DNA from: Vicugna vicugna
Lineage: Eukaryota
NCBI GenBank assembly: GCA_013265495.1
Contig: MU058198.1
Location: 7,021,779-7,085,778, forward strand
Length of the DNA stretch: 64,000 nt
Direction: 5' to 3'
Shown here: piece after piece, positions 8,361-63,639 of the stretch
Numbering within the stretch: the first letter of the stretch is position 1
How the letters are laid out: each line of letters opens with the position of its first letter
Program-made: the position numbers and the translations under genes
Notes under the pieces: model-generated
Databases searched by the model: none
Seen by the model: only the letters and a program-made list of their open reading frames with translations
Told to the model about the DNA's origin: nothing

Positions 8361-9099
8361 CTAGCTACATTTGAAAAATTAGAATTAGCAACCCTCTTTG
8401 ATAAAACATGGGCTCCTCAGGTCACCACAGGCCCCATTACTTCCCAGTACCTTGTAACTGGCCCACCCCACTCATTTACACTCCTACCTGTTCCCTGGCA
8501 TTTAAATTTGCGCCCTTGACTAAGCAGAAAAGGAACCAAGCAAGCCGAGAGAGAAGTGACTTGCCTGAAATCACCCAGTGATCTGATGGCAAGTCAGAAA
8601 CTACAACTTCCGTGTTTAGTTAGTTTTCCCTCCAGCAAATTCCCCTGCTAGACATTCAGGTTGTTAAATCTCTGATGTATCAGCTTCTCAACTAAATGTA
8701 GGTGAAGTCAGATAAAAACACCTCTCCCACACTTTATCAACGTGTTCTTAGCTTACTTATTCCTTTAGGGGTTCGGTGTCTCACGACATCGCCTCGGATT
8801 CTAAGAACTTTGCCAGCTGCTCCATCCACCTCTGACATTCTTTCTGCTACTCAAATATGCCAAGTGTGTTCCTCCTGAAGGTCTTTGTATTTGCCCTTGG
8901 CTCTGCCTGGAACGCTAGGCTCTCACACCTCCAGGTGGCCGCTTCTTCTGAGCTTCAGCTCAGTATCCCTTCCTCAGAGAAGCCCTCCATGACGACCTTA
9001 CCTACTCACACCCTGCATGCCCTAGCACTACTACCACCTCCTCTGGGAGAACACCCGCTCTTTGCCTCCTTTAAGGGCTTCCTTGGTACTTTGTCCGCA

Positions 9100-9870
9100 G
9101 CTCTCCTCAAACGCGCAAAGCTGGGAGGCGGGAAACTTTGCCCAATCCTCTGCCTCTCTGGGCCCCAGTTTTTCCTTCACGCCCAGGAAGCGCTCTGAGA
9201 GCACAGATTCGGGGCAGGGACGACGCTCTCCACATCAGGCAGGAGGCCAGGCGCCTCTTACTTCACGTCTCCAGGACCGACTACCTGAACGCACCTCGCG
9301 CAGCGCCCAGCACGGCCGCGATCCGCGCGCAACCCCTCAACTGGCCCGAAGACACCACGCATGCGCCGAAACTCCCGTCCCCACGAGATTGGGGGCGGGA
9401 CCTAGAAGCGGCTGCGCAGCTGCTCACCCGGCTTCCGGGTGATGCTGGCGGGATGGGTCTGCGAGCCAGTGCCGCTGAGTAGCGGCGGCATAGGGGCGTG
9501 CGAGCCCAGAGATCCAGCCCGGGGGCTCAGGTCCCCGGGTTCTCTGGGAGCGGCCGGAGGGAGCGGAGAGAACCTAGGATTGCCGCCCGCCGCAACCCCT
9601 GGGCATGTCCGCAGAAGCCTCGGGCCCGGCGGCGGCCGAGGCCCCGTCCCTGGAGGTCCCTAAGCCCTCGGGTCTCGAGCCTGGCTCTGCCGCCCACTGT
9701 CTCAAGCCACTGACCCCGAACAGCAAGTACGTGAAGTTGAACGTGGGCGGCTCGCTGCACTACACCACGCTGCGCACCCTCACTGGACAAGACACCATGC
9801 TCAAGGCCATGTTCAGCGGCCGCGCGGAGGTGCTCACTGACGCCGGAGGTACGCGAGCCGCTCTTGCTTA
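9100..9870 (+). promoter_or_regulatory. KCTD13 CpG-island promoter
   Basis: CpG-dense. NRF1-like ACGCATGCGC (9357-9366), GC box GGGGCGGG (~9392) and ETS CTTCCGG (~9433) lie upstream of the ATG at 9605. Confidence 0.85.
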
Positions 9871-12800
9871 CTGCCCTGCATCCTCCAGATCCACATCTCC
9901 CTTTCCCCTAGTCTTTCATCGCGCAGTCTCCTCATGCCCCTTCTCTCCTGTCGTCCGGTCAACTCATCCTCAGCTCCTCCAGCCGCCACATCCCATCTCA
10001 TCTCCCCTTTCTCATTCACGATCTCCCTCCTCCCCGGCCCCCGGCCCCCAATCTTTTCCCCCAGCGGTAGTAACCAGCATTCATGGAAAACCCAACCCCT
10101 CAACTACACTGCCAGGCGCTGTGGTAAGTGATTCAACATGTCAGCTCAGAATTTTCATGACTACTCCCCACTGATTCTCCCACCCTTCACCCCTCAGCTC
10201 AAAAGACTTGGGAACCAGCCCTGCTGCCAACAGCATGTTTCCAGGCAACCTTCACCAATGTCTTAAAACTGCCCAGCCTTTTGTTCCTCTCTACCTCAGC
10301 ACTGTTAACAACCTCCCAGAGAGCTGGAGGATCTTGTCTGTCTCTGTTCCCTTAACATAGGTCCCTGTACATCTGTAAATACAGACTGTAGAAGAAGGGG
10401 GCTGCTTTGGGTTTGCCAGGGACGCCAGAGTGGAGAATGAACAGATCTCTTTGGCAGGCGAACCTTACCTTCTCGAAGCTTTACATTCATGTCTAGGCCC
10501 CATTGCCCAAGTGGAACCTTAAAGTTTGGTGGGGGTGGGGAGGGATTCAGAGACAATTAACAAGGATTGTGAGAGCAGGAAAATAAAAATTGGGGAGGTA
10601 GAACTCAGTCTTCAAATATCTGAAGGTGACGAATTTATTTATTCACTAAGAATTTGTAAAATGCCAGTTAGTGCTGGAGATTGGTTAACGAATCTGATAA
10701 ATTAGCCTTATGGAATTTTCTTTTTTTGTAGGGGCAGGGAGAGAACAATAAACAAGTAAACATACCAAAACACAAACAAAACACGTAACTCTAGATAGTA
10801 ATAAGTTCTATGAAGAATATAAAGGTTAAAATGGTGGTAAACTGGAGATTGGAGTAGACATTTTAATTTAATAGGATGGTCAGAATTAAGAGGTTAGAGG
10901 TTTATTGATAAGGTATCTGTAGGAGCTTTCTCACGGTGAGAACCTTTTCAGTGTAGAACAGACTTGGGAGGGAATTAATTCTCTGGCTGGATGTATTAAA
11001 AAGAGGCCTATGGGAGAACTCACTAGAGATTTTTTTAAAGGAATTTTCTTGAATATGGTAGAGGCTTGAGACAGATCGGTTTTCAGACTTGTAGCTTTGG
11101 AATCCCTTTTTCATAAGAATTAGTAGCTCTAAGGCCTTCAGCAAAGCCATCCTTCCTCCTGCCTCTCCCCACCCTCCAGGTTGGGTGCTGATTGACCGGA
11201 GCGGCCGCCACTTTGGTACAATCCTCAACTACCTGCGAGACGGGTCCGTGCCACTGCCTGAGAATACCAGAGAACTGGGGGAGCTACTGGGCGAAGCACG
11301 CTACTACCTGGTACAGGGACTGATTGAGGATTGCCAGCTGGCACTGCAGGTGAGGGTCCCTCCCCCACCTCCTGAGTCCCACCCCTATGCCCATGTCCCT
11401 GGGAGAGCTGCCCAAGCAGTTAGCTATTAAGACATTAAAATAAATAAATAAATAAAAGGAAATATGGGGCACTGCCTGGAGGACTTGCCTCTGGCCTGGC
11501 TCTGACTAGCCATGACAGCAGAGACTTTGGGGGTACTGTCCTCTGCATTCTGCTGCCCCAGGCAGGGCCCCCCTCACCACCTCATGCCAAGACTACTGCA
11601 GTGGCTAAATGACTGCTCTCTCTGCTTCTTGCTGCTTCTACCCAGCCGATCCAACTGTTACACTACCACCAAATAATTGTCCAGTTTATTCTCTCCTTTG
11701 CTCAGAAATTCCAAATAGCTCCCTTGTCCCACTATGAAAAAAAAATCTAAATTCAAATTGGAACATAGTGATCTCCATGATCTGGTCCAACCCTGGGAGG
11801 CAGCATTCCACCCCTCCCAGGGCATTAATAATTTTTTTTCTAGTAATGAAATATTATAGAAGCAGCCACTCATAATAAAACAGGGTTGGGGGTTCCAGAG
11901 CCCCACCTGCTGGGCTTTTCTTCTGGGGATCTCTTAAGACTGTGAGGAGAAGAGCTTGGAAAGCACAGCCAGGGCATAGGGGTTAAGTGCTGCCTCCACC
12001 ACAGCTGACTGAGTGACCTTGAGTGAGTCAATTCCTACCTCGGGCATTCTGTTCTCATGTTCCAAAAGATAGTGAAATGAGAAAAATGTGTACAGTGTAG
12101 TGAGTTTCACATAAAGCCTTTTATTCTGTTTCATTTTTACAATGTTCAAAGTGTCCTTTTATGATACAGTATTAATAGGAGATTATAAGAGTTTCCTTTT
12201 AGATGCCCTTTATATATTAAAAAGTGGCAACTATGAACAACTCTCTGTTATCTTGGAGAATACTTACTGATTCTTAAAATCCGAAAGCATAGAATTCCTT
12301 TGAGCCATATCCATGTTTTTCAAACTTCTTGACTGCATCTCATAGGAAAAAAATGCATTTTATACTCACATATAAATAATTGAAATAAGAGTTTTAGTAA
12401 ATGAAACTTTTAGTGAAATACCCTCTGATATATTCTATTTTCTTTTTTTCTTTCCAATGCTATTTGGGACCCATTAAATTTATTTCATGACCCATTAATG
12501 GGTTACCACTAGCAGTCTGAAAAACATTAAACTAGATTATTTTGGAAGTGCATTCCTGCTCTATATGGCTCTACATTTATCTAATGTTATCTCACCCCCA
12601 CCGTGTGTTAGGATCGGTTCTGTTATCTTCCTGTATCCCTGTTTGACATAAAAAGAAACACGAGGGAAGCTGGGGATGCATCCAAGGTCAAAGAGCTGAT
12701 AAGCAGCAAAGCTCAGTCAACCGCAGTTTATCTGACTCCCAAGCACAGTACTTTTTCTTCTGTGCTCCAACTGCCTCCTTTCCAAGTTTCCCCGAGATCA

Positions 12801-25799: not shown

Positions 25800-44325
<18,526 letters not shown>

Positions 44326-44474
44326 ACCCAAGACTAAGGCTGCAGGACCCAGGATGCCCCTCCTCTCCTCATTCTGGGCAGGGAGGAGTACAGGACATGG
44401 TCTCTTGCTCCCTTCCTCCCTGCTGTGTAAATAGTCTCCTGGTCCCACAAGGGGGCTTTGATGACCCTACAGTA

Positions 44475-44842
44475 AATAAACCAGCATCCTGTGCCCAAAG
44501 CCTCCTCTTCTCAGTTGCCAAACAAGGGGCCTCCCCCTACTACCCAACTCTACCCGCTTTTGAACCCTGGGAGGGGAACTCAGCCCCTGCTGCAACTCCT
44601 GGGGCCCCTCCTGCCCAGGGCACCCCACCAAGACTGCCCAAGAACTCTGCTGCTCCCTTGGCCATGAAGGTTCTGCCCTTCCCAGATGCTCTGGCCCTGG
44701 GCCTAACCTCTAACCCTTGGAGGGTCAGAAGAAGAGGGATAAAGGGGGGAGAGCTGGGACAAGGCCCTCCCCTCTTCCTGCCATCTCCCCAACCCTCAGT
44801 CTCCCCATCTTTGCTTCTGGATTTTTGTTTTTGAGCAATAAA
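44475..44842 (+). terminator. SEZ6L2 candidate poly(A) signals (AATAAA at 44475-44480 and 44837-44842)
   Basis: Two canonical hexamers downstream of the stop at 44325. Confidence 0.65.
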
Positions 44843-46134
44843 CAGAAAATCACCATTTGGAACTGGGCTGGTGGGGTGTGGGAAGGTGGGTCACAGAGCA
44901 CTGGAGACAGTGATGGTGGCCTCCCTGGAGTGAGGACTGGGGAAAGGGAGCAATGTGGGGAAAAGTTGGATATCTAAGACTGCAGACAGGGCAAAGTCAA
45001 GGGAACAGGCCTGGGGTCAAAAAGCCTGGCTTTAGGCTCAGCCTCTGGACGACCAGCTGGGCCCCCTCCTGGCCTCAGCTGTCTCTCCACAGGGCTTGCT
45101 GTTTCCAGGCTCTTCTAGCTGGGAGAGAGCTGTCAGTAGCTGCCTCTCCTCCCTCCTCGTTTGGCAGCTGGAAAACAGCTCTCGATTTGTTTCATGACCA
45201 GTTGACCTAAAATTCAACCCCCTCCTGGGAATTCTTGTACCCATCCAAGTGCACCATTCTTTCTCCCCCCAATCATTTTGGCATTTTAAGCATATAATCT
45301 GTTACATGTCTACCAAGCATTAGGCAGATTTGCAGCATCTCATAAACAAGGAGCTTGCTTTGTAGCCTGGGGGTGTTCTTTTCTACTTTATCTACTTCTG
45401 AACATTGTAAGGAATTTACAGCCTGTTTGTCTTAAAGTCTTTCTCCAAATCAATTGAATTTTACTTAATTAAAATTTTATAATTAAATACAAGGAAACAT
45501 TTTTAGGACACTCAAAAGGATACTGAAATACTCAAAATGGGGCTGAATTTTAGGAGCACCTGAGGAAACTGACCTTGATAACAGCCTAAGTTTAGAGGCA
45601 TTTATTCTGTGCCAGGCATTGTGATGAGCACTTAACGTGCGTTATGTTTTCAACCCACACAAGGCCCCTATAAGACAGGGACAATTATTCCCATTTTTCA
45701 GATAAGGAAACGGAGGCTCAGCAGTGTGAACTGACTTCCTTAGGAGGCTCCAATTAAGTGGCCAGACTGGAATTTTTTTCTTTCCTGTTAACTCTTTTAA
45801 TACTCACAACACCTCTTTGAGAAAGATGTCATTATCATCTAATTAGATGGTTAATAAAAAGCATTCGATAAAGTTCCACATTAATTCATGCTTAAAAAAG
45901 CAAATTAGTAATTAAAAGGAATTTCTTTACCTAATAAAGAATGTGACAAGCAAGCTGTAATTTTTTAAAAAAATATATGTACCAATTTAAATTCCCAGCA
46001 ACAGTGTGTTAAGAGTTTTGCCTGCTTCACGACCTCACGAACAGTTGGTAGCATCAGACAAAAGTATTTGATTGTCCTATCACTTAATTTGCATTTTCCT
46101 AAAATTTATGATATGTTTAACTTTCATATTCCCT

Positions 46135-46270
46135 TTTTTTAAATTGACATATAGTTGGTTCATAATGTTTTAATTTCCGGTACAGCATAGTGATTCAGCT
46201 ATACATATATATATATATTCCTTTTCATATTCTTTTTCATTATAGGCTATTACAAGGTATTGAATATAGT
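46135..46270 (-). mobile_element. Short LINE-1 3' end (artiodactyl type)
   Basis: T-tract followed by AATTGACATATAGTTGGTT...CAGCATAGTGATTCAG...TATAGGCTATTACAAGGTATTGAATATAGT. Confidence 0.75.
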
Positions 46271-46905
46271 CAGACTGGGATTTAAATGCAAACTCCACCA
46301 AGCCTACTACACTGCCCTCTGGCTAGTAATGGGCATAATATATTCCCAGAGCCAGGAGGCTCCAAAGTATGGAGGGGAGACCTCAACACTGACTCTGGTG
46401 GCAGAGTGGCTCCTGAGAAGCAAAGGTGGACCCTCTCAGATGCCACAGAAGGTGCTGGAGTTTGGCTAGATGCTGGATCTAGATCCATGGACTCATCTCT
46501 GCCAACAGGTTGACAGATAATAGGTTGAAAACTGCCTGAATTAAAGCCATTTTCATAATATGGAATAAGCTGTTCCAATAAGATCTGGCAAAAGTGGAGA
46601 GGACACTCTTCCCACATCACTCCAGAGAAGCCACAAGAGAGCACTGCCCAGGTTGGGAGCAGGGAAAGATCTCTGTCTTTATTAAAGCTTTTGATTTCTG
46701 GTGGTGTCACTGCCAGTTGAGCGTGGAGAGGTGTTTGATGGTTCCAGAACACTTCGGAGGCTTCAGGGGTGATGTTGCTCATGACTAGGAGTCCCCCCAA
46801 AACCGAACAATTGAATGAATTTTGAAAGAGATCTGATGCATGTTCTAGAGGGACACAATGGGGGAGGGCACGAGAGGCCAAGAGCAGCACCAAAGAGCGT
46901 TGGGT

Positions 46906-49604
46906 TCATCCTCCAGATGTCAAGCTGCTAGGCAGAGCTCCCTAGAAAACAGCAAGTCATTTGGACCCTTTAGATGCAAGGCTCATAGCTTTTTATCCTT
47001 ACCTTCTTCACCTGTCTAGCCAACCCCTATCCCCCACCCATCTATTTACCCATCCCCCATTCCCCATCCATCCATCCACCCACTATTCCCCTTCCATCAA
47101 TTTATTCATCCACAAATCTACCCATCATTCCCCATTCATAACAGACACTCAATAAACATTTGCTGTCAATTCCTTCTCTGCTTTCTTCATGAACCCCTCT
47201 CTTCTTGTCTGCCAACCCCTTACATGGAGAGGTTCTCTAGGGTTCCAGCCTCAGTACCCTCTTCTTTCTCACTCTGCACAACCCCCCAGGGCAACCACAC
47301 ACTCTTCAACTGCCAACTCCCTCCTAGATCAGACCTCTATCACTGGCCCAGACCTTGCCAGTGAGTTCTGAAGCTGTATTTCCAACTGTCTACAGGGTAT
47401 TTCCACCTAGAATTCCTAGGGGCACCTCAAACACAATCTGTCCGAAGGCGGGAGCATGCCTGCCATGCTCCAGGAAGAATAAGAAGGCTGGTGTGAATGA
47501 AAGCAGGGAAAGGGAAGCAGTCATAGGCAATGAGGTCAGAGCAACAATGGGGCTGGGGAGGAGAAAGTACATGAAGGGCCTTGTGACCCGCTGAAGAACT
47601 TTGGCTTTGACTCTGAAATGAAGAACTATTGTAGAGTCTAAACAGAAGCATGATAGCATCAGACTTAGGTTACCCAAGTCAGAAACCTGTGTGTCATCTG
47701 ATTCCTTCTTTTTCATCCTCACCATTTCTAATCAATTACCAAACTCAGTCTTCCTGGCCTGTATTTCTCATATCTGCCCCTCCTCTCATCTCTTTTACTC
47801 TGACAATTCAGGACCTAATCATCTCGAGCTTAGTCTCCAATTCCTATTTGGCCTCCCTGCCTCTGGTCTATCCCCTTTCCACTTCAGTCTCCCCACTGAC
47901 TCCCAGAGTGACTGATCTAAAATTCCAACCTCCCTTGCTCAAAACTCTTCAATGACACCTCACCTATAGGAAAACATCTATGGATCTTAATAAGGCAGAC
48001 ATAAGGGCTCTTGATTAGTCCCTGGCTACCTTGCCTGCACAGTCCAGCAGTTAAAGTGCTTCTGGTCTCAGCCTCTTTCCTGTCCTAAGAACACACACAT
48101 ACACCCACACTCATGCTCCTGAGACTCACCTCTGCACCTTTGCTCATGCAAGCTCTACCACTTGGATACACTTACAACCCTGTTTTTTCCTGGAAATTTC
48201 TTTATTTAGGTGTCCCCTCCTCCAGGAAGCTCCATGACTTCTTTCCTTCCTATCCCAACTAAGGCTGGGATAAGTGCCCTTCTCACTGTTTCAATTTCTA
48301 TTATGGGCACTTATCCATATTTATTGTAATTGGCCACCTACTTGACTGGTCCAACACTAAACTCTGAACTCTTCAAGGACAGCGACTGTATCACTCATCT
48401 GGGTCCCAAATTCCTAAAACAGGGACTGGCATATCATGTGAACTCTAAATGTGTGGTTAATTCTGAATTGTCTTGTCATGCATGGACCCAGTACGTACCT
48501 TCTCACGAGGGGATGGTAGGAGGTGTGCCTTGGTACGGGTACAGTTTCTGTCAGAGCTAGAGATGGCGGAAGGAAAGGAGAGGACTGAGGAATCTCAATT
48601 CAAGGGTCAGAGCAGAACAGAATAGGTTTACGTGGTTTAAAAATACCTCTGCCCTGCTGGGATGTTGTCAAACCCTCACTCTCTCCCCTACAGCCTCCTT
48701 ATTTTTCTCCCAGGACAAAGAGCCTCTCCCTTGAAGCCTCACTCACCAGGTGTCAGTGCCTCGGGTCTTTGTGAAGAACACTGGAAGTAGAGGCCCCAGA
48801 CAGAGAAATTACTATCCCCATAGCCAGAAAGAAATGTGGCTAGGGAGGAAGGGGCTAAGGTGATTGCTGGCCAGCAGTGAGGGGTGGGTACTGGGTTAGT
48901 GGGCAGGGGGCACTGGGCAGTCCCAGAACTGGCTGTGGGTTGTGAGGGATGAGAATGGATTCCTGGAGAGGAATCCACGTGGTTGGGAGGGTGTCAGGGA
49001 CTGGAACTAGGGGTACAGGAGGGTCCCTGGACACAGTGGTCCTGGAGTAGGGGTCACCGTGTTTGGATATCTGAGTCCCTCGGTCTTGTGTCTGTTTTTC
49101 CTCCATGGGCACAGGGTTCATGTGGAAGGCAGCCATAAACAAGGCCTCGTCGGTGAGTTCCGTGCTGATCCGGGTCAGGAATTCCTCAGAATGCAAAACC
49201 TTATGGGAAAGGGAAATCAGAGGGGCTCAGCCTGGGAGTTCCTACATGGGAGTCCTGGGTCTAGAGGCTCCCTGGCTGGGGGCTCTGGATCTAAGGAGTC
49301 TGGTATTGGAGAGCTGGGCCTTGAGATTTGGCCTAGAAGGCCCTGGAAGGTGGGGAAGGGGGAGGAACTCTTTGAGGACCTTAGGGCCTAGTGCTGGGGG
49401 CTCTGGGCTCAAGGTTGAGGCTAGAGTTTCAAGGCTGGAGGTCCCAGTGCCCTCAGACAAGGCGCTCCCCAGCTCATTTCACCCCCAGCTCAAGAATTCC
49501 TCTCCAGTGCTCACCGGACCTCCGCCCAATGAGGTTGCAGAGGTTGCTGCCTGGGACTGCCGGCTGCCCTTTTTCTTCTCATTCCTAGTAGGACTGGATG
49601 CCAT
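46906..49604 (-). CDS. Putative uncharacterised 119-aa protein, 5 coding exons; positional counterpart of human CDIPTOSP (CDIPT-AS1) / mouse Cdiptos
   Basis: Exons 49604-49515, 49199-49058, 48780-48747, 48556-48499, 46941-46906; total 360 nt. All GT-AG with pyrimidine tracts; phases 0/1/2/0 are consistent. Kozak GGGATGG. Minus-strand AATAAA at 46683-46678. The last exon is the least certain. Confidence 0.72.
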
Positions 49605-49949
49605 CCCCCTGGGAACAGTTGGAGCCTGTGTTAGGCTGAGAAACCAGACCACTTTCCCCAAACCCAACCCACTACCATTCCCTGAGGCCTTAGAGAACTG
49701 TGTCAGTTCTCTCTCCGGAAATTTAATTAAAAAAAAAAACAAAAAACGTTGCCTTAAATCTTTCTGGGGGCGGGACTCGGACTCCATAACACTCTCCTCC
49801 CCACCCTCGCCCAGGGGAGGCCTCTCTTTTCTTCTTTCCACCCAAGGCCCTTCCCCAGACAAGGCAGCCCACTTGCATTCCCCGACCTGGCAGATGGGTC
49901 GAAATCTTGGGCTACTCGGCAGGAGGGGAGACAGGCAGGTCTAAGGAGC

Positions 49950-51130
49950 CCTTTTATGGGCCGTGGGGACAGGGATATGGGAGCTGGGGAGGAAGGTTGG
50001 AGAGAGGGGAACCTGGGGCGGCGCGCGGCTACCCGTTGCTATAAAAACCTTGGCGTCTGCGGAGGTTCCCCAGCTCCGTTGCCAGGAGATTAGGGATTCT
50101 AGAATCAAGGGTGGGGTGGGGGGCATTTTACCAGCTTATCACATTCGCTCTTCCAACCTCTCCTCCACCCCCTCTAGGTCCCTCCTTGGGGGCAGTGACC
50201 TCAGAGCCAGTGGCTTGAGAAATTGGGGAAGATTATGTAGGGTGGAGCCTGGGACCTAATCCTCCTACCACTAGGGGTACGCAAGAAGCAACCCCGCCCC
50301 AGGCCGCTGTCCAGCCTCTCTAGCCGTCAACTCGTTGCCTGAAACCTGCGGGAGCAGATAAGGACTGAGAGACTGGGCGGGGAAGAAAAATGTGGACTGT
50401 ACCAAGTAACATTGCCTCTCGGAGGTGCAATGACTCAGGAGTGCGGAATCTTTTCTCTTTTGTACCCAGAAAGTCACACCCTACGCAGAAAGGAAAGTAC
50501 AAACATTTATCTAGGCCTCCTCTTTTGACCTCTCCCTTTCAGTTCCTTCCTTTCCTCGACGTTGATTGTTCTTTGCCCCCTCTCCTCCCTCTGTGCTTTG
50601 GTACGAGCCGATGGAAAGGGGAGGAGGAAAGAAAAGGAAAAGGAAGCGAGCAGGTCTTAAAGGGGCAGCAGCGGTTTTTTAAGCCTCCTCCTTCCTCCAA
50701 TTTTGCAAGAGCGAACGCAGAAGAGTAGGTTTCCGGAAGACGAGTACAGCTGGAACAGCAAGGGCTGCAGCTGGAGGTGGGAGCGCGTGCGGGGCTGACG
50801 GAGGCGAAGGTCTGCCCGTAGAAAGGGCGGGGTGTGCGCGCCCCCTGCGCCCAGCGCCCAGCGCCCAGCGCCCAGCTGGGCTTCTGCATGCTCCGGCCGG
50901 CAGTGAGCTTTAACATCTGGGGCCCGGCTAGGGCAGCAGGGACCTGCGCGCAGTGGGCGAGGCCGATGCGCCGGGCCGGAGGGTAAACTGTCTGGCGGGG
51001 CTAGGACAGAGCTGGCACCTCCATATAGGGCCCAGGGCACCCAGTAGGCCTCCGCGATGCCAGGCGAAAATATCTTCCTGTTTGTGCCTAACCTCATCGG
51101 TGAGTGTATCCGCGGCTCCGGCCCGAACGG
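49950..51130. promoter_or_regulatory. CpG-island bidirectional promoter region of CDIPT and the opposite-strand gene
   Basis: CpG-dense. ETS palindrome TTCCGGAA (~50731), GC boxes, and X-box-like motifs at 50035, 50078 and 50334. Confidence 0.75.
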
Positions 51131-53657
51131 GATGGCTAGGGCCCTTGCTTGGGCAGGCTCCCTGATCTGCCCTGTCTCCCCTTGTCCGATCCCAAGGTTA
51201 TGCCCGGATTGTCTTCGCCATAATTTCTTTCTACTTCATGCCCTGCTGCCCCCTCACGGCCTCCTCCTTCTACCTGCTCAGCGGACTTCTGGACGCTTTC
51301 GATGGATACGCTGCTCGAGTCCTTAATCAAGGTGACAGACACCTCTTTCCAGCCAGCCTTGGGGTCCAACAACCCTCTGGCCCCTTTTCCTGCCTCCTCA
51401 GGACCTCTGGGTGGGCGAGTACTCGGGAATCTGAGGGCTCTGTCATTCCTATCTCTGAAGCAGAACAGAATGGCCTGGTTTTGTAGCAGAAGGGATTTAA
51501 GTTCGCTGTTGAGGTGAACTCAGAGATAGTGAGGGATGAGGGATAGCAAGACTGGGCGTGGCAGTGCTGGAGGCCTCTCTGAATAAAAATCCATTCAACA
51601 ATGTTTACTGGGCATCTACTGTGTGCCAGGCACAAGCCATAAGGATTCCAGAAGGCATGTTTAGAGGGAGGATGGAGAGGGAAGGTGGACGGCTTCTGGA
51701 GGGTTGACTAATTTTTTCATCTGTTCTTCAGCCCTGCCTCCAAGACTTCAAGTCTCTGTGTCTTGAGACCTGGATCCTTGGTTCTGGGACTGATGAGTTG
51801 TAGAGCTAGATTTCTCACTCCCTCCTACACTGTTCTCTCCACACTCCCATGCTGCCTTGTTACATGGTGTGGTGACCCTTGCCCTTTGACCTTCGCACCC
51901 CAGCAATAGCAGCCTGTTTTCCTCCCCGGGCAATGGATGGTGGACATTTTCACTCTTAGGCTCTGCATCAAGTGATACATCAAATATGCTCACTGTCGTA
52001 GATCCACTACCCTCTTCAGCCCCTTTCCACCTAATAGTCCCCATTTTTCAGGAACCCGGTTTGGGGCCATGCTGGACATGCTGACAGACCGCTGCTCCAC
52101 AATGTGTCTGCTGGTCAACCTGGCCCTGCTGTACCCTCGCGCCACCCTTCTCTTCCAGCTCAGCATGAGCTTGGATGTGGCCAGCCACTGGCTGCACCTC
52201 CACAGGTCTGCGATTCCAGGGGTGCTGAGCAGTTGAAGACATTGCGGTGGGGAGGAGTGAAACTTTCTGGGGAGGAATGTCTTCAGGCTTTGGGGGAGAT
52301 CTCCTGTTTAGCTCTGCTTTGTTGAAGGACCCTGGGAAAATCTCTAAATCAGCTTCATTCATTCTGTTTTACCAGTGGTTTAAGCAATCCTGAAAACTCT
52401 TCTGACTGGATATTTGAGGATTTCAAATAGATAACACCCCCCGGGAAGGGGCGTAGGGCATTAGAATCCTCATTCTTCCCCCATCTAAGTAATCTGTGTG
52501 ACTGCCGGCAAGCTGGTGATCCTCAGCTGTGCCCCATTCTCTCCTCTGTTCAGCAGAGGCAATCCCAGGCCCTACCTTGTGGGGTTGATAAGAGAATTAG
52601 ATGGGTATTTATGGTAATTAACACTTATAGATTCCCCCTACTTTCTCCCCAAGTTCTGTGGTCCAAGGCAGTGAAAGTCACAAGATGATTGACCTGTCTG
52701 GAAATCCAGTGCTTCGCATCTACTACACCTCCAAAGTAAGCATTTCCTGCCCCTCCCTATTTACTCAGCTTATGGCAAGGTCTGGCTGAGCCCTAGACCT
52801 GGGGTAGGATCTGCAGGAAGGGCCTGTGTGAATTGCTCCAGGCAGCAAGATAACCTGAGACCCAGGTGCACCCAGAGAGGAAGAATTCTTTGGCTTGAGG
52901 GGAGAGGGAGAGAGGGAGGGAAGGAAGGAGAAGCCAGAGCGGTCTGCAGAACCAGCTCTCAAAAGGCTGTAGGCTGAGACAAGGAGTGTAGACCTTATCC
53001 TGGGCGGAGGTTGTAGCACCGTCAGATAGGGTCCAGGGCCTGCAGCGATGCCAGGCAGAAATATCTTCCTGTTTATGCCTAACCTCACTGGTGAGTGCTG
53101 CCTGCGGATCTGGGCCAAAAGGGAGGGGGAAGAGGGGCAGATTACCTGATTCCCAGATCCCCCCAACCATCCCAGCCTCACCACAACCCCCTGCACCCCT
53201 GTTTCCCCAGTACAGTTCCTGACCCTAAGTTTGTTGGGGAGGAAACTGCCCCACCCTCTTGTTTAAGCAACGTTTTTGCTGTTTGTGCAGCCTGCTCTAT
53301 TTATCCTGTGTGCTGGCAATGAGCTCTTCTACTGCCTCCTCTACCTGTTCAATTTCTCCGAGGGACCTTTAGGTAGGAGATGAGGTGCCGGGCAGGAGGA
53401 TGGGAGGAGGACTGGCCTGCCCAGAAAGATGAAGGCTGCAGACTCTTGGGCCTGTCCCTGAGTTTGCATCCTGCTTTCTCTGTATCGCCCGCCTTTGCTC
53501 CCTTCCCACAGTTGGCTCAGTGGGTCTTTTCCGAATGGGCCTCTGGATCACCGCCCCTATCGCCTTGCTCAAGTCCCTCATCAGTGTCATCCACCTGATC
53601 ACAGCCGCCCGCAACATGGCTGCCCTGGACGCAGCAGACCGTGCCAAGAAGAAGTGA
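51057..53657 (+). CDS. CDIPT: CDP-diacylglycerol--inositol 3-phosphatidyltransferase (phosphatidylinositol synthase), 213 aa
   Basis: Exons 51057-51099, 51197-51331, 52052-52205, 52654-52735, 53291-53372, 53512-53657; total 642 nt. CDP-alcohol phosphotransferase motif DAFDGYAAR...G...D...D; C-terminus RAKKK. Confidence 0.98.
53005..53175 (+). other. Intronic duplicate of the CDIPT 5' UTR end, first coding exon and intron 1
   Basis: 53048-53090 matches 51057-51099 at 38/43 nt. ATG and donor GTGAGT are retained. Weaker similarity extends upstream and downstream. Confidence 0.9.
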
Positions 53658-60345: not shown

Positions 60346-63560
<3,215 letters not shown>

Positions 63561-63639
63561 CTGGGAACAAAGACATCTCATCTTCAAAAAGGACACTAAA
63601 ACCCATTCTCCGTGGTTGGGCTGGGTCTTATGACAGAGA

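Follow-up and report, generated by a model that had tools for sequence, protein, structure and literature searches.

Does the vicuña genome encode a small protein next to CDIPT, at a locus that in human is filed as a pseudogene or a long non-coding RNA (lncRNA)? We examined this question in a stretch of 64,000 nucleotides (nt) from Vicugna vicugna (NCBI GenBank assembly GCA_013265495.1, contig MU058198.1, positions 7,021,779 to 7,085,778 of the forward strand), which we call the window. The original prediction, drawn from the letters alone, placed there a minus-strand gene of five exons and 119 codons, considered to be a real small protein gene kept in this lineage and lost in human. We are highly confident that the locus is the camelid orthologue of a known mammalian gene, T-ENOL (Cdiptos), and that its human counterpart is CDIPTOSP. 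The data establish its identity, its gene structure, its synteny and its mammal-limited conservation. The novelty implied by the prediction does not hold, as the gene is already annotated in this lineage with exactly this protein, and in more than 100 mammals under the names T-ENOL or "CDIP transferase, opposite strand".

The gene model itself was recovered in full. The five minus-strand exons of 90, 142, 34, 58 and 36 nt, their splice borders, their phases and the 119-residue translation were all found in the sequence as predicted (Table 1). After splicing, the open reading frame (ORF) measures 360 nt, that is 119 codons followed by TGA, and runs without a stop through intron phases 0/1/2/0. 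Every donor is a GT preceded by a G at the exon end, and every acceptor is an AG preceded by a pyrimidine-rich tract, the acceptor of the 142-nt exon being of the weak form AAG. The predicted strong Kozak context (G at -3 and at +4 of the start ATG) is present, as is the AATAAA signal expected about 220 nt past the stop and found at 223 nt. The count of five exons stands for the coding exons; an upstream non-coding exon is additionally implied by a camel model. The fourth coding intron extends over 1.56 kb and contains, at about 47040-47110 on the minus strand, a short run of GGAT/GGGA-type repeats (gatggatggatgg...). Of the words sampled from 46600-50200, fractions of 0.28 and 0.22 are present in the two of the 24 listed sequencing runs that are certain RNA libraries, values that are uninformative on splicing, tissue and expression.

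A splice chain of this kind is, on its own, not beyond chance. We searched 42 control tiles of 3 kb from the window, on both strands and with real genes included, for chains that start at a strong-Kozak ATG, use as donors a G followed by GTR with A at +4 or G at +5 and as acceptors an AG after at least 60% pyrimidines, and contain at most 4 introns of at least 70 nt and exons of at least 30 nt. Under these rules, which are as loose as the weakest sites accepted in the original prediction, a spliced ORF of at least 119 amino acids (aa) is possible in 19 of the 42 tiles, and the T-ENOL region itself permits a chain of 255 aa. What supports the gene is therefore independent evidence, namely identity to a database protein and conservation across mammals.

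The spliced product is identical, letter for letter, to P0001, a database entry named "putative protein T-ENOL isoform X1 [Vicugna pacos]", and the same sequence is present in the ESM Atlas. The gene is known as Cdiptos, for "CDIP transferase, opposite strand", and as T-ENOL, with the Swiss-Prot entries ENOL_RAT and ENOL_HUMAN. When the 47 residues of coding exon 2 alone were used as a query, 105 of 106 candidates were retained at E <= 0.01, ENOL_RAT being in the list; all the named entries were placental mammals labelled either "putative protein T-ENOL" or "CDIP transferase, opposite strand". Compared with the T-ENOL/Cdiptos entries of RefSeq and UniProt, the vicuña locus is the same gene at the same place by CDIPT and shows no difference of substance. 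A search of the 2.03-Gb assembly with P0001 gave three matches, all of them the window's own exons with the introns in place, including residues 1-45 at coding exon 1 and a match at coding exon 4. The gene is thus single-copy in the assembly and is neither a retrocopy nor a paralogue. Altogether, full-length similarity, position beside CDIPT, conserved blocks and a single copy all point to orthology with T-ENOL.

How far does this family extend? An exhaustive profile search of 1.84 billion representative sequences returned 40 proteins, all of them T-ENOL-like (best E 1e-58). The ten most divergent, which we looked up, belong to anthropoid primates, to four genera of marsupials and to both monotremes. 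When a second profile was built with these added, it retained 159 proteins from 3379 candidates, and the named entries among the 120 listed were all mammals. One entry was nameless and another, P0185, a 273-aa bat protein matching the T-ENOL profile at E 1.6e-34, bears the source label "atrophin-1 isoform X2", which is evidently wrong; this entry seems to be either mislabelled or a fusion model. Among the matches listed, relatives were therefore seen in mammals only, including two monotremes and about ten marsupials. Orthologous DNA was also sought in metagenome contigs, where none of 52 pattern matches was confirmed.

Identity to the window protein amounts to 63-82% in 21 placentals, hippo (82%) and cow (78%) being the highest of the set, and to 46-49% for platypus, echidna and dasyurid marsupials. 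Over 13 sequences from placentals, marsupials and monotremes, 18 alignment columns are invariant and another 19 are almost so. Mean column conservation for coding exons 1 to 5 is 0.68, 0.85, 0.92, 0.84 and 0.57, respectively. By tblastn, coding exon 2 matches echidna at E 3e-11 and platypus at E 2e-10, and coding exon 4 matches marsupial and monotreme proteins at E 0.01-0.04. The window product carries the S-E-E-[FY]-L helix and the G-T-Q-[IM]-S, T-R-G-T-D-T-R-S-D and H-L-L-P blocks, with two arginines of the basic block replaced by cysteine. The locus also provides an internal control, as the frame is maintained from the common M-A-S start onward while extensions upstream of it vary in frame between species. 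Neutral sequence could not remain alignable and in frame since the monotreme split. The invariance of these blocks from monotremes to placentals therefore argues for selection on the protein, an argument made at the level of protein alignments and with predicted protein models throughout. On this basis, the claim of a real small protein gene is supported by a product equal to P0001 and by orthologues in placentals, marsupials and monotremes.

The camelid form differs from the placental consensus by an altered junction between coding exons 1 and 2 and by the two Arg-to-Cys differences. The corresponding codons are TGC at residue 89, split by the intron, and TGT at residue 94, as expected from CpG transitions of CGN. 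The change at residue 89 is shared by bat, and pig has a similar Arg-to-Cys change two residues further on.

Table 1. Positions of the T-ENOL exons, of the alternative ends and of neighbouring features in the window
Feature	Position	Strand	Details
Upstream first exon (minimum extent; very probable)	50135-50049	-	donor GT 50048-50047, spliced to AG 49627-49626
Coding exon 1	coding 49604-49515; exon 49515..49625	-	90 nt, residues 1-30; ATG 49604-49602; acceptor AG 49627-49626; donor gtgagc
Coding exon 2	49199-49058	-	142 nt, residues 31-77 plus one base; contains the predicted helix (residues 34-57) and the G-T-Q-I-S block; acceptor AAG; donor gtgacc
Coding exon 3	48780-48747	-	34 nt; V-F-F-T-K-T-R-G-T-D-T; donor gtgagt
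Coding exon 4	48556-48499	-	58 nt; basic Thr-rich block and H-L-L-P-S-P motif; donor gtacgt
Terminal exon, coding part, proximal acceptor (5a)	46941-46906	-	36 nt, 11 residues and TGA; 3' untranslated region (UTR) onward to the poly(A) signal
Terminal exon, distal acceptor (5b)	46785..46844; AG 46846-46845	-	97 nt downstream of 5a; tail of 19 residues; TAG 46787-46785
Poly(A) signal AATAAA	46683-46678	-	223 nt past the stop
CDIPT start	51057..51483	+	ATG 51057; next coding exon within ORF 51166-51483; ORF opens M-P-G-E-N-I-F-L
SEZ6L2-like exons	34338-42809	+	four Sushi ORFs, two CUB ORFs
MVP shoulder domain exon	63173-63577	-	E 7e-33; right edge of the window

One could object that this transcript is a non-coding by-product of the divergent CDIPT promoter, its ORF being fortuitous and spread through the databases by homology-based annotation. 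Indeed, ORFs of this size can be chained in nearly half of the control tiles, the sources themselves call the protein "putative", its AlphaFold2 model has low confidence, and the human locus is filed as a pseudogene or lncRNA (classed as a pseudogene in a review table, PMC11211608) and figures in lncRNA gene lists. Such an origin would not explain that the frame is kept and the blocks are invariant from monotremes to placentals while the upstream exon shifts its frame between species, nor that conservation tracks the coding exons and peaks in the two smallest internal ones; moreover, Rfam gave no match over 44000-52000. We thus regard this explanation as very improbable. The same holds for the idea that the ORF, although open, is decaying under relaxed constraint in camelids. 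It could draw on the cysteines found at residues 89 and 94 within the conserved basic block and on the altered exon 1/2 junction with its weak AAG acceptor, but the frame holds neither a stop nor a frameshift, the camel model is nearly identical over the common part, bat and pig show similar single changes in the same block, and the identities to hippo and cow are the highest of the set. Several points do weigh against our own view of a conserved coding gene. The orthologues are predicted models, a type of evidence that favours open frames, and homology-based pipelines can propagate each other's results. In addition, the camelid protein deviates from the consensus where coding exons 1 and 2 meet, and its residues 89 and 94 are cysteine but arginine in most of the 22 species of the alignment. 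Finally, the tail past coding exon 4 is inconsistent between species, with two acceptors and models that read through the intron, and the last 11 residues are for this reason the least certain part of the protein.

A third possibility is that the gene is real but that its main product is another form, made either from an upstream start or with the distal tail; we consider this unlikely, though less so than the two explanations above. The upstream exon itself is very probably real and extends the five coding exons: the first 29 residues of the camel model P0002 match 50135-50049 without exception (29/29) and continue at 49625. It contains an ATG at 50126-50124 that splicing would bring into the frame of the main ORF, with no stop from 50126 to 49604, and that would add 33 residues to give a 152-aa form; the camel model starts there. 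However, other species do not conserve the protein sequence of this extension. Their own N-terminal extensions align to 50030-50300, where they occupy three different frames and where some of them meet stops in the window, a pattern which is that of UTR evolution, and the exon is probably non-coding. As to the 3' end, the distal acceptor is present in the window and its N-M-P-Q-type tail is annotated in horse, cat, loris, tupaia, gundi and platyrrhines. On the other hand, the tail that it would give here has drifted, its stop having moved so that it counts 19 residues versus 11 in other species, which fits the use of the proximal acceptor in this genome. The proximal tail matches that of cow, rodents and armadillo, and is also found in models from hippo, pig, bear and elephant. 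Moreover, the alpaca database model has the very structure given in the original prediction. We thus retain the 119-aa protein as the main product.

What, then, became of this gene in human? That the human locus is a pseudogene or lncRNA agrees with the classification of CDIPTOSP as a pseudogene, placed between CDIPT and SEZ6L2, in a review table (PMC11211608). Its loss in human is only partly correct. The basic block is gone, but an ORF of 83 codons remains, and the truncation is not specific to human but an old one common to catarrhines. Human CDIPTOSP (formerly CDIPT-AS1; P0DO92, 83 aa) lies at the orthologous position; its first 83 residues align with the vicuña protein, and the helix and the T-Q-I-S block are kept. 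All nine catarrhine models that contain coding exon 3 end after F-F-T-K-T, at residue 83: two from human, including ENOL_HUMAN P0DO92, two from gorilla, one from macaque and one each from Nasalis, Piliocolobus, Rhinopithecus and Pygathrix. Compared with the window, the human, gorilla, macaque and colobine models thus have neither the conserved basic block nor the tail. In the remaining five catarrhine models, coding exon 3 is skipped or an intron is read into. The bonobo and orang-utan models join coding exon 2 to the distal acceptor at 46844 in the other frame and skip two exons. Platyrrhines (Sapajus, Callithrix) retain 119 residues and strepsirrhines are intact. In the window, the codon after the position of residue 83 is CGA, one transition away from a stop, and the catarrhine stop may have arisen at this codon by such a single change. 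The glycine of G-T-Q-I-S, otherwise invariant, is alanine in all anthropoids seen. Among the 83-aa forms of catarrhines we counted about 16 amino-acid changes, a rough count that is too coarse to decide on constraint.

At the other end of the mammalian tree, the orthologues of marsupials and monotremes are longer, with 184-243 aa (P0113-P0115, P0124, P0152, P0155). These proteins, annotated under LOC names (e.g. P0115, P0152, P0114, P0155), share with the vicuña protein the same 100 N-terminal residues, that is the start, the helix, the G-T-Q block and the basic Thr-rich block. Unlike the placental proteins, they continue after H-L-L-P for about 100 further residues, which include an E-D-F ... 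S-Q-H-K-Q-V-E segment common to both groups. A tblastn search with this C-terminal segment found no relic of it at 44-51 kb of the window (best E about 5). A possible history is that T-ENOL, a coding gene confined to mammals and dating back to the monotreme split, has been shortened stepwise from its 3' end while its first 100 residues or so remained under selection, from about 185-245 aa in monotremes and marsupials to about 119 in placentals and 83 in catarrhines. Human and the other Old World primates would then be without the most conserved basic Thr-rich block, which is kept by nearly all other mammals. Our confidence in this history as a whole is evenly divided; our literature search found no statement of it.

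One would also wonder what such a protein could do. Its composition is that of a basic, hydrophilic chain, with an isoelectric point of 9.4, a grand average of hydropathy of -0.74 and 29 serines and threonines in 119 residues. In accordance with the original prediction, which recognised no domain, Pfam provided no family at E <= 1 for four placental orthologues and a single noise match (E 0.19) for four of the long marsupial and monotreme forms. AlphaFold2, run on an alignment of 22 sequences, predicts one helix at residues 34-57 and a remainder without secondary structure; the mean predicted local distance difference test score is 57.9 for the whole chain, with block means of 63-70 in the helix, and the predicted template modelling score is 0.19. 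This helix is acidic (5 Asp and Glu versus 1 Lys and Arg), and the C-terminal half of the chain is basic and Thr-rich. The prediction of a two-copy complex scored 0.00 against a mark of 0.32, which is evidence neither way. Despite its name, an enolase can be discarded for this protein of 119 mostly disordered residues with no Pfam match at E <= 1. We also gave up a docking site for protein phosphatase 1 in K-H-V-F-F, of the RVxF type: the last position varies (I, C or V), and marsupials and monotremes do not have the motif. An amphipathic character of the helix was likewise abandoned as an argument, its hydrophobic moment over residues 34-51 being 0.94 versus a shuffle mean of 0.66 (standard deviation 0.33).

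We tentatively propose that T-ENOL could be a small, basic, Ser/Thr-rich and mostly disordered regulator or adaptor that acts through short conserved segments rather than through a fold, a model that we hold to be possible but doubtful. These segments would be the helix, the G-T-Q-I-S block and the basic Thr-rich block (T-R-G-T-D-T-R-S-D-R-N-R-T-R-T-K...H-L-L-P-S-P). The acidic helix (residues 34-57) could dock on a partner protein. The basic block and the S-P site could be a target of basophilic or proline-directed kinases, or else a patch for nuclear targeting or for binding nucleic acids; an enzymatic role would not be expected. Several observations weigh against this proposal. The hydrophobic moment of the helix is unremarkable, since 20% of 2000 shuffles reach or exceed it, and the AlphaFold2 confidence is low. 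The kinase or nuclear-targeting role of the basic block is read from composition and motifs and not from a tool. Finally, our literature search turned up no functional study of the T-ENOL protein.

The neighbourhood of the gene was analyzed as well. T-ENOL and CDIPT are arranged head to head, and at its other end T-ENOL lies tail to tail with the SEZ6L2-like gene. It is transcribed away from the CpG-rich region that it shares with CDIPT. Its layout probably comprises a single non-coding 5' exon, the five coding exons and two alternative acceptors for the terminal exon, and its main product here is the 119-aa P0001. Its predicted divergence from CDIPT is thus correct, since the CDIPT start codon lies on the plus strand and the ORF of the CDIPT exon at 51166-51483 gave 140 database matches, of which the named ones are mammalian CDP-diacylglycerol--inositol 3-phosphatidyltransferases with up to 94% identity. 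The same ORF matches PF01066 at E 3.8e-4 with 21.3 bits, just below the cut-off of 22, and no match to this exon was found among PDB sequences. The tile 50001-51000 is CpG-island-like and forms a CpG-rich region common to T-ENOL and CDIPT, in which the upstream exon of T-ENOL lies; a second tile of this type was seen at 9001-10000. The name SEZ6L2 is suggested by domain content and by the gene order given in papers. The order of genes in the window is the one given for human CDIPTOSP between CDIPT and SEZ6L2 (PMC11211608, table), and a whale paper mentions T-ENOL, SEZ6L2, CDIPT and MVP together at one locus (PMC11289666). Antisense to coding exons 1 and 2 and to intron 1, a stop-to-stop ORF of 289 aa runs on the plus strand at 49075-49941. 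It was rejected as a candidate gene, with no Pfam family and a best Atlas score of 0.79, which corresponds to a low recognition, and it is probably a chance open frame in pyrimidine/purine-skewed sequence.

In the literature that we covered, Cdiptos, CDIPT-AS1 or T-ENOL is mentioned in 16p11.2 copy-number gene lists, in lncRNA signatures and in one mouse preprint, where Cdiptos was measured by RT-qPCR (quantitative reverse-transcription PCR) in embryonic stem cells as a CTCF-insulated gene (bioRxiv 10.1101/2025.05.26.656183). As a discovery, the vicuña gene carries little weight, a model with exactly this protein being already public for the lineage. It provides a check of method, since a reading from sequence only recovered a gene of five coding exons and 119 codons including its phases. 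Its biological interest lies in T-ENOL itself, an uncharacterised small mammal-only protein encoded in the region syntenic to the human 16p11.2 copy-number interval. Rodents and most model mammals carry the full form and catarrhines a form cut at residue 83, a difference that is relevant to the interpretation of animal models of 16p11.2. If the stepwise history proposed above is true, rodent models of the 16p11.2 deletion would take out a conserved coding gene for which human has no full counterpart.

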